Assembly: GCA_910585565.1 (NCBI GenBank)
Contig: CAJUFC010000156.1
Location: forward strand, 1 to 60,601
Direction: 5' to 3'
Length of the DNA: 60,601 nucleotides
DNA from: an uncultured Eggerthellaceae bacterium
GTDB taxonomy: Bacteria > Actinomycetota > Coriobacteriia > Coriobacteriales > Eggerthellaceae
Positions within the stretch are counted from its first letter, which is position 1. Each line of letters begins with the position of its first letter. The notes under the pieces were generated by a model. It was not told where the DNA came from, did not search any database, and worked only from the letters and a program-made list of their open reading frames with translations. Position numbers and translations under genes: made by a program. This document shows positions 8,303 through 16,880 of this stretch, in pieces.

Positions 8303-9576
8303 TAGCTCAGCTCCTCAAGGTTCACCAGGTTGCCCACCGCCGCGTCCACGGCAGCGGTCAGCTGCTCTGTCGTCACGTAGCCCGAAAGGTCGATGCTCGC
8401 GGCATCGCCCGGGTCCCCCTTGTCGCCTTTGGCTCCCGGTTCTCCGGGGTCGCCCTTCTCGCCCTTGAGCGTTGCCAGCTGCTCGGACGTGAAGTCCGCG
8501 AAGGTGAAGGCGTCGCCCTTGTCGCCCTTGTCGCCTTTTGCCCCCGGCGTGCCCGGCTCGCCCGGTGCGCCAGCAGCGCCGGGTTCTCCCGTGTCACCTT
8601 TCTCGCCACGCGCACCATCCCTGCCGGGTGCGCCGTCCGCTCCCCGTTCGCCCCGCAATCCCGGCTCGCCCCGCTCGCCTTTGGTCCCGTTGCGTACCAC
8701 GAATGCCGATTCCTCGCCATTCGTCAGCGTCACGGTGATGACATTCTCCCCGCCGCTCTCCTCCGACCTCGCCGTCTGAACCACAGAGGCTATGCCGACG
8801 CCATTCTGGCCGACTTCGCCCGAGCCGCCTCCGACGACGCTCCCAGCGCGCCCGTTGCGCACCTGGAAGTCGCTCGAAGTCCCATCGGTCGGCGTCACGG
8901 TGATGACGTTGACGCCCGCATCGACAGTGGAAGTGGCAGTCTGCACGACCGATGCTATGCCCACGCCGTCGCGCCCAGGAGCGCCATCTGCGCCGTCCTT
9001 CCCGTCCATGCCATCGCGCCCCGGCGCACCATCGGCCCCAGCTGGCCCCGGCTCTCCGGGCTCTCCCTTCTCTCCGGGGTCACCCTTCTCGCCCTTGATG
9101 ACGCTCACGCCATCCAAAACGGCCAGCATCTCCTCGATGCGCCCTGCGCCCTCCTCGTAGCGCTTGATCGCGTCCACGAACAGCGTGAACCCGTCCTCGC
9201 TGCCGCCCGCGCCCACCAGCGCCGGCTCGACGCGCACCTTGAACACGCGGGTAGATACGGCGGGGCCGTCGGGGAGCGAGATCATGACCTGGGCGTCCAC
9301 CACGCCCTCGCATTCCTGCATGGCGGCGGGGTAGAACACGCGCCACGCGCCGTCCTCGCCGCACGCGAACGGCTCGCACCCTCGCTTTCCGCTCATGCGG
9401 TGGCGCCATATCAGGTACACATGCGCGCCCGCAAGCTCTACGCCCATCGCGTCGGGAATCGTGAAGACGATGCCCCTTCCGCAAGCGTCGACGGGCGATG
9501 CCACCAGCACGTCGCCCAGATAGTCGTCGCAGCCGTTCCACACCAGCTCGTGCAAGCAGCAGTCCTCTATCGCCAT
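8299..9576 (-). CDS. Collagen-like (G-X-Y repeat) phage tail fibre
   Basis: Several G-X-Y tracts (GEKGDPGEKGEPGEPGPAGADGAPGRDGMDGKDGADGAPGRDG). They are separated by two paralogous ~40-aa modules (GVGIASVVQTATSTVDAGVNVITVTPTDG... and GVGIASVVQTARSEESGGENVITVTLTNG...). Confidence 0.85.
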   Translation of the reverse strand: MAIEDCCLHELVWNGCDDYLGDVLVASPVDACGRGIVFTIPDAMGVELAGAHVYLIWRHRMSGKRGCEPFACGEDGAWRVFYPAAMQECEGVVDAQVMISLPDGPAVSTRVFKVRVEPALVGAGGSEDGFTLFVDAIKRYEEGAGRIEEMLAVLDGVSVIKGEKGDPGEKGEPGEPGPAGADGAPGRDGMDGKDGADGAPGRDGVGIASVVQTATSTVDAGVNVITVTPTDGTSSDFQVRNGRAGSVVGGGSGEVGQNGVGIASVVQTARSEESGGENVITVTLTNGEESAFVVRNGTKGERGEPGLRGERGADGAPGRDGARGEKGDTGEPGAAGAPGEPGTPGAKGDKGDKGDAFTFADFTSEQLATLKGEKGDPGEPGAKGDKGDPGDAASIDLSGYVTTEQLTAAVDAAVGNLVNLEELSY

Positions 9577-13419: not shown

Positions 13420-14346
13420 CTACTTCGCGCCCTCTGCCTTGGCGTCCGCCGCCTTGGCTACGGTAGTCGCGCCCATAACGCTCGCATGAATGCCGTCCAG
13501 CTTCGCGTCCATCAGCTCCACGATGCCGTACTTGCGGTACTTCAGCATGTAGCTGTCCAGGCTCTCAAGCTCGTCGGGGCTGAAGATGCGGCTCGGGACG
13601 TGCTTGTCGAACTTCACCACCGCACTCTTCTCAACCACAAGGAAGTTCAAGTCAGACCCATCAGCCGCCTTCGCGTAGCCGAACTTGTCATCGTCGCCGT
13701 TCAGCAGATCGATCTTCGTGTAGAAGCGCACCTGCGGCACCTCAATGATGCGGTTGAAGCGCGTCAGCACGCGGTTGGAGCGTGCGGGATTGGCCAAACT
13801 GAAGTCGTCCAGGATGCCCTTCAGCGTCGGGGTGATGAACAGAAATCGGCTCCCGGTGGAAACCTGCAACTCGTCCATCTCGTTGGTCACGCTGCGAAGC
13901 GCGGCAAGCACGTCGCCCGCCTCGGCGTCGCTGAAGTCGGTCGTGGTGCTCGCTACGTCCTTATGCCCGGCAATCTGCGCGAAGGTGAAGGCGTCGGCCT
14001 CGGGTGCCACCTGCACGCGCTGGAGCTCACCGCCGGCCTGAACGAAAGCGTCCTCGATGCCCGTTTCCTCGATGTCCATAGCGTCTGCGAACAAACGGAT
14101 GCCACGGTCGTAGTTGAATGTCTTGGTTTCCCACTCGTAGTTGATGGAACCGGTCTTGTATCCCACGTTGCGCTCGTAGTTACCCAAGCCCGTCACGCTG
14201 ATGCGCGGCACCATGATCTCTCGCGCTCCGCGCCCGGCACGCACCATCGTCGGGTCAGAGTTGAGGCACGCAGATGTCGCTTCGCACTGGTACACCTTGT
14301 CCAAGATGCCGGCGTAGTTCTTCTTGAACGCGATCGAGTTGGCCAT
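13420..14346 (-). CDS. Major capsid protein
   Basis: 308 aa, MANSIAFKKNYAGILDKVYQ... It is preceded by an Ala/Glu-rich scaffold gene. Size and position are typical. Confidence 0.75.
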   Translation of the reverse strand: MANSIAFKKNYAGILDKVYQCEATSACLNSDPTMVRAGRGAREIMVPRISVTGLGNYERNVGYKTGSINYEWETKTFNYDRGIRLFADAMDIEETGIEDAFVQAGGELQRVQVAPEADAFTFAQIAGHKDVASTTTDFSDAEAGDVLAALRSVTNEMDELQVSTGSRFLFITPTLKGILDDFSLANPARSNRVLTRFNRIIEVPQVRFYTKIDLLNGDDDKFGYAKAADGSDLNFLVVEKSAVVKFDKHVPSRIFSPDELESLDSYMLKYRKYGIVELMDAKLDGIHASVMGATTVAKAADAKAEGAK

Positions 14347-14828: not shown

Positions 14829-15223
14829 GTCTCACTCCTAGCCGCCGCACCACAGAATGCGGCGCGGCATCGCTTGTCTGCGCCCGCATGCTGCGGGCTT
14901 CTTCGGCTATGAGTTTGGGGGAGTGTCACAAAGTGAAGGGTATCAATGATGGATACATTTTGCCGTATTATTGCTTATGCTTTTGCCTAGACTCAGATAG
15001 TAAAAATCGCGATTCAGCGAATTGAACGTATGGCTTTAATTTAAAAGCCCTTCTGCGGCCAGCTAACAAAGACGGTCTTTGTGCTTTCTGTTTCGACACC
15101 ACTGCCATTTTGCCTAGTACCATTGGAAGAGGTAAGCGCGCGACCCGTTAAAGACATCATTAGCAATCCGATGCAAAAGGTGGAAAATCCCAAAAATGAC
15201 AAACGTAAATTACTTACGGCCTT

Positions 15224-16201
15224 TCACCATTCTTCCGGAATGTACAGAGTTACGTCACCGTAAGCAGCTCTTAACTTCTCGAAAGAAACCCCACCGCTAT
15301 GTTTACACGCATCATGGATTATTGTCGGAATAAGGAGCATCGTATTTCCATCTGCGCATTCATGCCAGGTGAGTTTGTTTTCTTTGCGATAAGCAGCAAT
15401 CTGCCTGCAGAGTACGTCTCGTTTCATTTCTCGTAGAGAGGATTCGGATAGAGATAATTTCTCGGCTAATGCCAAATCAGCTTGATTGAAATTACCTAAA
15501 TCATATGATGGATCATATGCTTGAGCTTTTGTGCGCCTCCCATATTCCCATTTCGGATTCCTTCTATGGGAAGTCATGTGACCTATGGATACTTCAGCGA
15601 AAACGTCTCCCCAAGGTGTTGAAATGTGTGCAAATGGCGTGAAATCAGGGTATCCGTCTTTGTACTCAACCCCTTCGGTCCCGTATTCAGCCAAGAAAGC
15701 CCTTGCATCCGAATCATTGGGAATAAAAAGTGAGTTACCGGCCACTCCGCTGAAGTCACCTGTTTTTTGTGTTGGCAGATGCTTGCGTCCAGGTAAAGGC
15801 TCTTCTTTTGAAAAATCAACCTTTAAAGCACTTTCTTCCCCGCTGTTGTCTAACTCTCGTATGATGCCTAGCTCTTCTTCAGTGCTCATGGTCTTCGAAA
15901 AATCGATATTCTCAGATTGTTTGTTGAAATCTTTTACGATGTATTCTTCGAGAAGATCAGCCGTTTGATTCAATCCGGCCACCAATCCTCCGCAAGCATC
16001 CTCTATATCCTGTGCGGCGGCTGTACATCGATTGACATAATCCCAAAATAGATTTGCGCGTATGCCTAAGTTTTGCATTTGAGAAGCAACAAACTCTAGC
16101 AGCCTATCAGATTCCTCACTAAGATGATCAATTGCTTGCGGTATGACGATGGCGAAATCGCGCAATGCTTGCACGCTTTCCAAGGAGGCGCTAACTTTCA
16201 T
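15224..16201 (-). CDS. Polymorphic-toxin-like protein: N-terminal helical WXG100/LXG-like domain plus C-terminal HNH/EndoVII (WHH-type) nuclease domain
   Basis: C-terminus GYPDFTPFA...NFNQADLALAEK...LTWHECADGNTMLLIPTIIHDACKHSGG (nt 15290-15370) matches the remembered WHH toxin pattern YTWHH..d...MqLVP...H....HtGG. The first ~90 aa are paralogous to the upstream 121-aa protein. Confidence 0.7.
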   Translation of the reverse strand: MKVSASLESVQALRDFAIVIPQAIDHLSEESDRLLEFVASQMQNLGIRANLFWDYVNRCTAAAQDIEDACGGLVAGLNQTADLLEEYIVKDFNKQSENIDFSKTMSTEEELGIIRELDNSGEESALKVDFSKEEPLPGRKHLPTQKTGDFSGVAGNSLFIPNDSDARAFLAEYGTEGVEYKDGYPDFTPFAHISTPWGDVFAEVSIGHMTSHRRNPKWEYGRRTKAQAYDPSYDLGNFNQADLALAEKLSLSESSLREMKRDVLCRQIAAYRKENKLTWHECADGNTMLLIPTIIHDACKHSGGVSFEKLRAAYGDVTLYIPEEW

Positions 16202-16217
16202 CTGGTGCCTTCGATGT

Positions 16218-16583
16218 CTAACGCCTTATAACGGTTTTGGTATCTTTTACTTTTTGCCCTCGTCTTGGCGCAGAGGATTCGCCTCCAGAATTAACCCCGT
16301 CCATGCCCAGTTGCTTGTTGATCCAGCCCTCTAAACTATCTGCCGTGGCATTCAGCCCCTTAGGAAGATCGGACAATGCGTCTGAAGCATCTTGAGCTGC
16401 CCGCATGCACATCCTGACGATATCCTCAAAATCACGCCCCCTAACACCTAGATCAGATTCAAGCCCTCGATATTTTTCTTGAAGATGCTGGGTTTCATCG
16501 ATTATTTGATTGACTGCATATGGCATTGCCTCTGCAAAATCCCGCAGCGCCTGAACGCTCTCCAGATTAGCCTCGATCTGCAT
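16218..16583 (-). CDS. Small helical protein, paralogue of the toxin N-terminal domain (WXG100/LXG-partner-like)
   Basis: MQIEANLESVQALRDFAEAMPYAV... aligns with MKVSASLESVQALRDFAIVIPQAI..., and both carry a shared (D/N)LG(V/I)R motif. The tail is Gly/Ser/Lys-rich. Confidence 0.6.
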   Translation of the reverse strand: MQIEANLESVQALRDFAEAMPYAVNQIIDETQHLQEKYRGLESDLGVRGRDFEDIVRMCMRAAQDASDALSDLPKGLNATADSLEGWINKQLGMDGVNSGGESSAPRRGQKVKDTKTVIRR

Positions 16584-16587
16584 TTAC

Positions 16588-16872
16588 CTATGCCTCCTCG
16601 ACTATTGTTTCCAAATCTTTGAGGTCATTTGCGAGGATGGTAAGTCCATCTTCGATAATTCGGTCCGTCGCCCAATCAAGAACAGCCAAGGCTTCTTCAA
16701 GTTTAGTTATCTTCTTGCGCGAAATAGGATCGCTACCCATCGCCTGGTCACACACATTTGCCGCATTCAGTAAGAATTGTTTTTGAGTATAGATAGCCTC
16801 TTGATATTCGCGCACTGCGGTGATAAGCGACCTTACCGCATCTGTATCCATGAAATTGTTCGACATCTGCAA
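16588..16872 (-). CDS. 94-aa helical-hairpin protein (WXG100-like size and shape; AMG in place of WxG)
   Basis: Two predicted helices joined at CDQAMGSDP near the midpoint. 8 nt downstream of the ATPase stop. Confidence 0.5.
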   Translation of the reverse strand: MQMSNNFMDTDAVRSLITAVREYQEAIYTQKQFLLNAANVCDQAMGSDPISRKKITKLEEALAVLDWATDRIIEDGLTILANDLKDLETIVEEA

Positions 16873-16880
16873 CCCTTTCC

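Follow-up and report, generated by a model that had tools for sequence, protein, structure and literature searches.

How is a nuclease toxin gene maintained with no immunity gene beside it? In polymorphic toxin systems, a cognate immunity gene lies immediately downstream of the toxin gene; toxin-immunity pairing is treated as the rule for contact-dependent and type VII secretion system (T7SS) antibacterial nucleases and is also used to find such systems. The question is raised by a contig of an uncultured Eggerthellaceae bacterium (GenBank assembly GCA_910585565.1, contig CAJUFC010000156.1), of which a stretch of 60,601 nucleotides, hereafter the window, was analyzed. Five tightly packed genes on the minus strand (15224-21195) lie within a low-GC island and encode, in the order of transcription, a 335-amino-acid (aa) protein with two transmembrane (TM) helices, a 1112-aa ATPase, a 94-aa protein, a 121-aa protein, and a 325-aa toxin (Table 1). 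The answer that I favor, with somewhat more confidence than doubt, is that the toxin is the cargo of a compact T7SS-related export module, horizontally acquired and lodged in a prophage head module. This reading follows from a WXG100-like carrier borne on different toxins together with the EccC-like fold of the ATPase. Related loci and genomes are designated below by L and G numbers.

A nuclease with a His-Glu dyad

The C-terminal part of the toxin (residues 178-306) scores above the Pfam cut-offs for both Colicin-DNase (PF12639; 3.4e-12, 47.4 bits against a cut-off of 25) and WHH (PF14414; 3.4e-10, 39.9 bits against 25.1). The segments GYPDFTPFA, NFNQADLALAEK, and LTWHECADGNTMLLIPTIIHDACKHSGG all lie within the one 325-aa open reading frame (ORF). 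When a profile of 25 homologues was compared with the PDB, only WHH-type Rhs toxins were matched (8bd1_A, 1.6e-7; 8h8a_B). The ungapped alignment places 'LtWHEcaDgktmqLvP..H..HsGG' against 'YVWHHHQDGKTMMLIP..H..HTGG' of these toxins, with WHEC opposite the WHHH of 8bd1_A and 8h8a_B, and the upstream G(Y/F)PDF(S/T)P(F/Y) motif aligns with them likewise. Thus, the original prediction of an HNH/EndoVII nuclease with Glu in place of the second His of WHH is borne out, E281 being the residue concerned. An AlphaFold2 model of the toxin (51 sequences, mean pLDDT 90.6) has the ββα-Me topology, with β1 at residues 277-281 (LTWHE), β2 at 287-292 (TMLLIP), and the helix at 293-298 (TIIHDA), where pLDDT is 95-98. 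As judged from the profiles and the model, the C-terminal ~185 aa is a WHH/Colicin-DNase-type ββα-Me nuclease, and DNA cleavage is predicted. A linker at residues ~100-130, with an acidic helix at 108-119, precedes the nuclease (residues ~140-325), which carries two insertions at about residues 190-201 and 213-236.

In WHH toxins, the first His of the dyad is a metal ligand and the second is the water-activating residue, and the W-H-H tripeptide is nearly absolutely conserved (Zhang et al. 2011, PMC3113570). By this assignment, E281 (codon 15359-15361; W279, 15365-15367) would take the general-base position, and H280 (15362-15364), H296 (15314-15316), and H301 (15299-15301) are the three putative metal ligands. 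A Foldseek search with the full-length model gave no significant nuclease match and was dominated by the helical carrier; thus, the catalytic mapping is based on hidden Markov model (HMM) alignment. No PADLOC model matches the nuclease, and PADLOC and NCBIfam give nothing for the toxin and the small proteins.

Is the Glu a sign of attenuation, as was originally suggested? An exhaustive HMMER search of 1.84 billion representatives (50%-identity clusters) was made for the nuclease domain: 1032 clusters reach E<=1e-3, of which 286 reach E<=1e-10 and 69 reach E<=1e-30. I examined 188 homologues, namely 62 from a word-index search and further proteins among the 150 best HMMER matches; loci fetched by a WHE-containing pattern were left out of the estimate. 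At least 175 of the 188 have the H-E dyad, and none has H-H. The strict W-H-E pattern is found in 168, and the others are nearly all fragments or have W-H-E or (I/L)-H-E with other neighbouring residues. In an alignment of 51 homologues, H280, E281, D284, L290, H301, G303, and G304 are invariant and H296 and W279 nearly so. Since hundreds of clusters show little or no variation at E281 and the three putative metal-ligand His residues, the active site appears to be under selection. These comparisons of sequences indicate that WHE is a clade-wide character, not a local degeneration. The suggestion of attenuation is therefore not supported: H-E is the norm in at least the 286 clusters found at E<=1e-10, the putative metal ligands are conserved, and shorter relatives are paired with a DUF6985 gene (see below). 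The members of the clade come mostly from gut Firmicutes and Coriobacteriia, and their dyad amounts to a naturally occurring test of the general base in ββα-Me nucleases.

Absence of an immunity gene in the long nuclease subfamily

No cognate immunity gene was found in the window or in the host genome, as judged from the lack of a conserved downstream ORF and from searches with a DUF6985 HMM and tblastn; on this point the original prediction holds. It had named a 39-aa minus-strand ORF as the only one between the toxin and the island edge. The 285-bp tail (bp, base pairs) does lack an immunity gene, but it contains two overlapping minus-strand ORFs of 53 and 51 aa, which were rejected as immunity genes because they resemble nothing downstream of homologous toxins. 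The longer one holds a lipobox-like SLTG(R) (~15150-15165); at L007 and L003, the toxin gene has lipoprotein genes downstream of it. An immunity role of the 94-aa and 121-aa proteins was rejected, since members of both families are also found with effectors other than nucleases. The upstream proteins of 189/148 aa and 151 aa, proposed earlier as immunity proteins, are absent from every homologous cassette, their homologues lying near no other cassette. The genes that follow other toxins, in L007 (212 aa), L003 (two, of 174 and 150 aa), and L031 (479 aa), show no relation to one another and are absent from the window; the L007 product has a weak partial match on contig C34, the only such match in the host genome.

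Is an immunity gene found at homologous loci? Among the close homologues L003, L007, L009, L010, L011, L012, and L036, nothing is conserved downstream of the toxin, and no homologous locus conserves the 53-aa or the 51-aa ORF. In L007, the lipoprotein gene begins 4 bp past the toxin stop codon, while in L003 and L012 a 487-bp gap is followed by the unrelated 174-aa and 150-aa (lipoprotein) genes. Convergent genes lie downstream in L011 and L009, and a Band_7 protein is encoded downstream in L010 and L017. In the metagenomic cassette L036, the two-TM protein gene is duplicated: the second copy (8508-9563) lies 152 bp past the toxin and possibly begins another module in tandem.

More distant WHE nucleases are followed by a 120-142-aa gene of the DUF6985 family (PF22481; 5e-7 to 7e-9), with a gap of 0-4 bp or an overlap; in L053 this gene is present in four tandem copies. 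An HMM of the family matches every locus of this short subfamily (1e-32 to 1e-55); even at E<=10 it has no match in the host genome or at any long-type locus. I aligned 28 nuclease domains, 9 linked to DUF6985 and 19 not. Both insertions are missing in all nine of the former and present in 15 of the latter; the exceptions are L019, with the first insertion and without most of the second, L031 and L051, which lack both, and L046, which is atypical. On these alignments, the absence of immunity appears to be clade-wide and typical of the long, two-insertion subfamily. Because the locus is identical in at least 23 contigs and the absence is shared among homologues, the immunity-less state is probably stable and inherited rather than due to truncation at the edge. 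An immunity-less clade with an intact active site would imply either a new kind of self-protection or a pump-gated intracellular effector.

The carrier domain and its stand-alone paralogue

The 121-aa protein is 44% identical to toxin residues 1-96/98 (E 3.5e-17 and 1e-20 in two comparisons), far beyond chance, which confirms the duplicated N-terminal carrier domain seen in the original prediction. The arrangement had been taken for an unusual one, but a toxin-borne and a stand-alone carrier are paired in every homologous cassette (L003-L008, L012, and L036). The 121-aa paralogue family is conserved in L003, L006, L007, L012, L031, L033, L034, and L036, with one or two stand-alone copies per locus; thus, it is a regular component of the system, not an oddity. 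More distant cassettes with the same ATPase family also have stand-alone carriers (94 and 110 aa in L033; 122 and 92 aa in L076). The distribution was judged from the loci, as a word-index search with residues 1-100 (an index of 5.8 billion proteins) returned the query alone.

Polymorphic toxin systems join a conserved N-terminal trafficking domain to varying C-terminal toxin domains (PMC3482391). The present carrier behaves in this way. It is N-terminal on the WHE nucleases of the window and L031 and on a 313-aa HEVGH (metallopeptidase-like) protein of L033, which is followed by an overlapping 66-aa ORF. In L034, a separate 102-aa carrier precedes a 254-aa ART-like protein (a weak ADPrib_exo_Tox match, 0.022) and then a 50-aa ORF.

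In the AlphaFold2 model, the carrier is a hairpin, helical throughout residues 7-95. Its single invariant residue among 17 sequences is G46, at the hairpin turn (LG motif). The best-superposing small PDB folds in Foldseek are WXG100 proteins, with target-normalised TM-scores of 0.76 for EsxA (2vs0_B, rmsd 2.5 Å), 0.72-0.78 for EsxB (4j11), and 0.70 for GBS1074, but at E ~2 the matches are not significant. Profiles of the carrier and 94-aa families matched only generic helical or designed proteins in the PDB. As modelled, the N-terminal ~96 aa is a helical hairpin of the carrier family, WXG100-like in shape. The stand-alone carriers of 121-125 aa end in a conserved Gly/Ser-rich stretch and a basic motif, RRGxKV...K..RR(R). 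The copy on the toxin lacks this motif, which is a candidate recognition signal for the ATPase. The 121-aa paralogue is probably a co-secretion or targeting partner. The 94-aa family (consensus NAANVCDQAMGSD) has a weak profile-profile link to the carrier family.

An EccC-like ATPase with a membrane partner

The 1112-aa ATPase has three tandem P-loop-like domains and a Pfam FtsK_SpoIIIE match. The NCBIfam EccCa model is matched at 7e-19, below its cut-off, and matches to EccC/EssC models lie far below cut-off. In a sequence search of the PDB, only T7SS ATPases were found (4nh0 EccC at 3.6e-10, then YukB, EccC5, and EccCb1). A model of the ATPase (38 sequences, pLDDT 80.5) has as its best Foldseek match the three-domain cytoplasmic part of EccC (4nh0_A, 1.9e-19, 1017 columns), followed by D2-D3 of EssC/EccC (4lya, 4n1a, and 5fv0; 1e-15 to 1e-12), with FtsK motors behind (2.4e-10). 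On this model, the ATPase is a soluble protein with an EccC/EssC-like three-domain fold. Its family is a large one: at E<=1e-10 it has 289 clusters (90% identity), found in gut Clostridia and Collinsella, and a profile scan found no relative in IMG/VR viral contigs. Among species representatives, the family is rare. With the toxin as query, it was detected in one genome out of 401 in the host's class; in a second class, presumably Clostridia, the ATPase profile detected it in 2 genomes out of 399.

The 335-aa two-TM protein, a probable membrane dock or channel, always precedes the ATPase and has homologues in L003, L031, L033, L034, L036, and L076. The host genome has no WXG100 match, and its sole other FtsK-domain protein (FtsK_SpoIIIE, 7.7e-66) is taken as the housekeeping FtsK; thus, the module must be self-sufficient.

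In Firmicutes versions of the cassette, a paralogue of Lgt (prolipoprotein diacylglyceryl transferase, PF01790) is conserved just upstream of the TM-protein/ATPase pair; it is absent from the window. The distant cassettes L076 (383-12850; G530) and L077 (G528) include Ser/Thr kinase, vWA, and PP2C genes. A radical-SAM gene of L076 is related (1.7e-8) to the radical-SAM/SPASM gene at 22176-23471 of the window, which may therefore belong to an extended system.

The same nuclease domain behind other ATPases

The nuclease domain is also found with other N-termini directly after HerA/DUF87 ATPases, in L009 and L015 (with kinase and PP2C genes), L010 and L017, L018, L037, and L044 (with an Lgt paralogue). 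In all, three ATPase families precede a WHE nuclease: the EccC-like family, a DUF87 family of 787-946 aa, and a 1143-aa DUF87 family accompanied by a dynamin-like GTPase. The last occurs in a conserved operon of the Coriobacteriia genus g20 (L028-L030, from G318, G360, and G371) and of metagenomes (L049 and L050), in the order 603-aa protein, 860-aa dynamin-family GTPase, 1143-aa DUF87/HerA-TrwB-like ATPase, 229-aa WHE nuclease, and overlapping DUF6985 gene. It is present in 8 of 401 class genomes sampled, all of one genus. L013 (2720-6338) and L037 (5666-7418) each have two consecutive effectors with a common, highly acidic, repetitive N-terminus (e.g., (I/V)PED repeats), apparently another type of N-terminal module that polymorphic effectors share. 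The constant coupling to an FtsK/HerA pump is the strongest argument for an ATPase-gated intracellular nuclease; the common N-termini on tandem effectors and the DUF6985 partner also fit export.

Export or intracellular action

Export is favored because the ATPase folds like EccC, membrane and hairpin partners accompany it, and the cargo is polymorphic. The toxin carrier and the 121-aa and 94-aa proteins would form a helical bundle, by analogy with EsaD-EsxB/C/D or LXG-Lap1/Lap2. The ATPase would recognise the bundle and hand it over to the membrane partner for export, and the exported nuclease would degrade DNA outside the producer or in a target cell. Since no antidote is encoded, the long-subfamily nuclease is probably held harmless in the producer by means other than a cognate inhibitor. 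The folded long-type domain might be latent by virtue of its two insertions or the acidic linker helix, or the His-Glu site might depend on extracellular conditions. At the window locus, the toxin might be expressed with the prophage structural genes, in cells committed to lysis. There is no terminator-like site between the toxin and the scaffold-like gene, but because terminator and promoter scans were at chance level, co-transcription of the two is only conjecture. A bolder joint claim, which I hold as tentative and rather doubtful, is that long WHE nucleases are exported, immunity-independent toxins, latent until ATPase-driven export or unfolding or until they meet extracellular metal or redox conditions, and that their exporter is a minimal T7SS relative made of a soluble three-domain EccC-like ATPase, a two-TM protein, and paralogous hairpin carriers.

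Several observations weigh against export. A secreted antibacterial nuclease without immunity contradicts the rule of polymorphic toxins and leaves the protection of kin unexplained; the self-protection proposed above is conjecture, and export itself is something I infer. The position of WHE nucleases after two other, HerA/DUF87 ATPase families fits ATPase-gated intracellular nucleases. EccC/EssC-type ATPases of T7SS are anchored in the membrane by N-terminal TM helices, whereas the window ATPase has no TM segment (no hydrophobic window >1.6 in 1112 aa) and a single Walker A motif (GASRSGKS at 510). Neither the carrier nor the 121-aa and 94-aa proteins match Pfam WXG100 (PF06013) or LXG (PF04740), and EsxA/HP0062 appear in the carrier and 94-aa profile searches at a non-significant E of 0.2-0.8. 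No EsaB/YukD-like or EssB/EsaA-like protein was seen.

The main rival, which I consider unlikely though worth serious attention and which resembles the partner-restrained intracellular effector of the original prediction, is an intracellular conflict system. Here, an ATPase of the EccC/HerA type would detect or translocate incoming phage or plasmid DNA, or a phage protein, and then release or activate the nuclease inside the cell. This would amount to abortive infection or restriction, and the prophage would carry the module for superinfection exclusion. A nuclease acting inside the cell needs no immunity gene, in line with the long subfamily, and the soluble ATPase and the three FtsK/HerA-superfamily families directly before WHE nucleases point the same way. 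So do defence-island-type neighbours (RT, LRR, Band_7, Fic, HipA_C, and SNase; Abi_2 in the window) and the HerA-activated effectors that serve as precedent (PMC11291478, PMC11514289). However, PADLOC has no match for the nuclease and only generic FtsK-domain matches (mad8, SspH) for the ATPase, the structure of which is closest to T7SS EccC/EssC and not to HerA. The conserved membrane partner and the WXG100-like hairpin partners are hallmarks of export. A DUF6985 partner, as in the dynamin-DUF87 type, would be superfluous for a gated effector, small ORFs follow carrier-bearing effectors with different toxin domains, and the ATPase family is without a match in IMG/VR.

It seems improbable that the domain is a catalytically inactive or non-toxic derivative of HNH nucleases, such as a DNA-binding module, in which the change from His to Glu abolished cleavage and made immunity unneeded. 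E281 does replace the His assigned as the water-activating residue (PMC3113570), and the long subfamily has no immunity gene, but the near-invariance of E281 and the putative metal ligands speaks against decay, as does the pairing of short-subfamily WHE members with immunity-like genes, once in a four-copy array. Loss of an immunity gene, as entertained in the original prediction, is very unlikely: the cassette would have been truncated on insertion or rearrangement with the prophage, and the toxin tolerated as silent or nearly so. The toxin is indeed the last gene of the island, close to its edge, and the SLTGR of the tail recalls the SLTGC of the lipoprotein 4 bp downstream in L007, the closest full-context homologue. 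Nevertheless, chromosomal homologues (L003/L012 and L036) and other architectures likewise have no conserved downstream gene, and the absence of immunity correlates with the two nuclease insertions over ~20 loci. What L007 and L003 encode downstream are secreted lipoproteins, which would hardly inhibit a DNase in the cytoplasm, and the toxin ORF is intact and recurs identically in the contigs described below.

Comparison with known systems

The window toxin has the same nuclease core as the WHH toxins (PF14414), such as the C-terminal toxin of Vibrio parahaemolyticus RhsP (PDB 8h8a/8h8b) and 8bd1. The G(F/Y)PDF(T/S)P(F/Y) motif, W-H-x ending β1, DG.TM.L(I/V)P in β2, and two His residues after it are common to both. 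It differs in the His-Glu dyad in place of His-His, the two insertions, an extra conserved linker before the nuclease, the WXG100-like carrier that replaces the Rhs/CDI trafficking parts, and the lack of an adjacent immunity gene.

In the T7SSb of Staphylococcus aureus, the nuclease toxin EsaD is accompanied by the immunity protein EsaG, the chaperone EsaE, and the small partners EsxB, EsxC, and EsxD (PMC10653861), and LXG toxins have the targeting factors Lap1 and Lap2 (PMC9600955). The Esx and Lap partners are by analogy the closest counterparts of the stand-alone carrier. Like these systems, the window has a nuclease with a helical N-terminus, encoded after two small helical proteins and near an EssC-type ATPase, with polymorphic C-termini. 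Unlike them, it has no EsaG-like immunity protein or chaperone, no EsaA, EssA, EssB, or EsaB, and no Pfam LXG or WXG100 match; its ATPase is soluble with one Walker A motif, and the partner is truly paralogous to the N-terminal part of the toxin. The LXG domain (PF04740) is ~200 aa in length, whereas the present carrier is ~96 aa, with an invariant Gly in its 'LG' turn.

The variants T7SSc-T7SSj all have a membrane-bound TsxC and a WXG100-family TsxA, and most have a ubiquitin-like TsxB (Garrett, Higginson & Palmer 2024, PMC11217815). The window resembles them in its EccC-like ATPase, small hairpin proteins, and candidate toxin substrates, and the kinase, vWA, and PP2C genes of L076 and L077 recall T7SSc (PMC11217815). 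It differs in its ATPase, which is without TM helices, in the lack of any protein that reaches WXG100, and in its conserved partners, namely the two-TM protein and, in Firmicutes, the Lgt paralogue. The compact module is not among current T7SS classifications. The defence pairs DUF4297-HerA and Sir2-HerA (PMC11291478, PMC11514289) likewise have an FtsK/HerA-superfamily ATPase before an immunity-less effector on a mobile element; the window ATPase is EccC-like and outside the HerA clade, without a PADLOC match, and comes with membrane and hairpin partners and a secretion-type carrier.

The nuclease fold, the logic of carrier plus partner, and the EccC-type ATPase are of known kinds. New in the literature searched are the His-Glu clade, its split into a DUF6985-linked and an insertion-bearing immunity-less part, the soluble EccC-like module with paralogous carriers, and its carriage in a prophage head module. 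By that carriage, a phage would move the toxin between gut bacteria.

The island and its prophage setting

The features are listed in Table 1. The GC content of the island is 0.41-0.50, against 0.61-0.71 in the flanks and 0.63 in the genome. It falls from 0.66 to 0.43 at ~15000, and two congeneric genomes (G416 and G417) have a related prophage segment whose homology to the window ends exactly at 14938; thus, the island edge assumed in the original prediction is real.

Table 1. Positions of the features discussed, in window coordinates unless a locus is named
Feature	Position	Strand	Basis or remark
Two-TM protein, 335 aa, with coiled-coil regions	20188-21195	-	Hydropathy; homologues at other loci
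EccC-like ATPase, 1112 aa, no TM segment	16881-20219	-	Pfam FtsK_SpoIIIE, Foldseek, hydropathy
Second small helical protein, 94 aa	16588-16872	-	Conserved partner family; probably 92 aa from ATG 16866, the length given by gene callers
Stand-alone carrier paralogue, 121 aa	16218-16583	-	Paralogy to toxin N-terminus
Basic C-terminal tail of 121-aa protein	16218-16290	-	Conserved in 121-aa subfamily
Effector, 325 aa: WXG100-like carrier (residues 1-96), linker, nuclease	15224-16201	-	ORF, Pfam, AlphaFold2
Toxin carrier domain, residues 1-96	15914-16201	-	Paralogy to 121-aa protein
Nuclease domain	15227-15784	-	Profile alignment, AlphaFold2 model
Island tail after toxin stop, 285 bp	14939-15223	-	Without conserved ORF or immunity gene
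53-aa ORF, TTG start (contains the 39-aa ATG version)	15041-15202	-	Island tail
51-aa ORF	14968-15123	-	Island tail
Scaffold-like phage gene	14352-14828	-	3' of toxin, same strand
Major head protein gene	13420-14346	-	phrog_422, 9e-68
Lgt paralogue	L031 4301-5077		Prolipoprotein diacylglyceryl transferase
Lgt paralogue	L033 4338-5102		Prolipoprotein diacylglyceryl transferase
Lgt paralogue	L034 4366-5169		Prolipoprotein diacylglyceryl transferase
Lgt paralogue	L044 40-291		Prolipoprotein diacylglyceryl transferase

In G416 and G417 (L064, 10234; L065, 10170), the capsid-scaffold segment is 81% identical up to 14938 of the window, beyond which lies unrelated DNA of lower GC content with a MerR-like regulator and SMR efflux genes. 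Thus, the same junction is a breakpoint in other lineages too. Many samples yielded an identical toxin protein, on at least 23 contigs in all (36 index blocks). Seven further contigs show the same prophage context, in which the 1373 bp from the toxin start to the scaffold-like gene are 100% identical. In one sample (L066, 1-3321), the ATPase gene of an otherwise identical island is called as two products (1016 and 88 aa), which points to a frameshift or a nonsense mutation in the pump gene of the population sampled.

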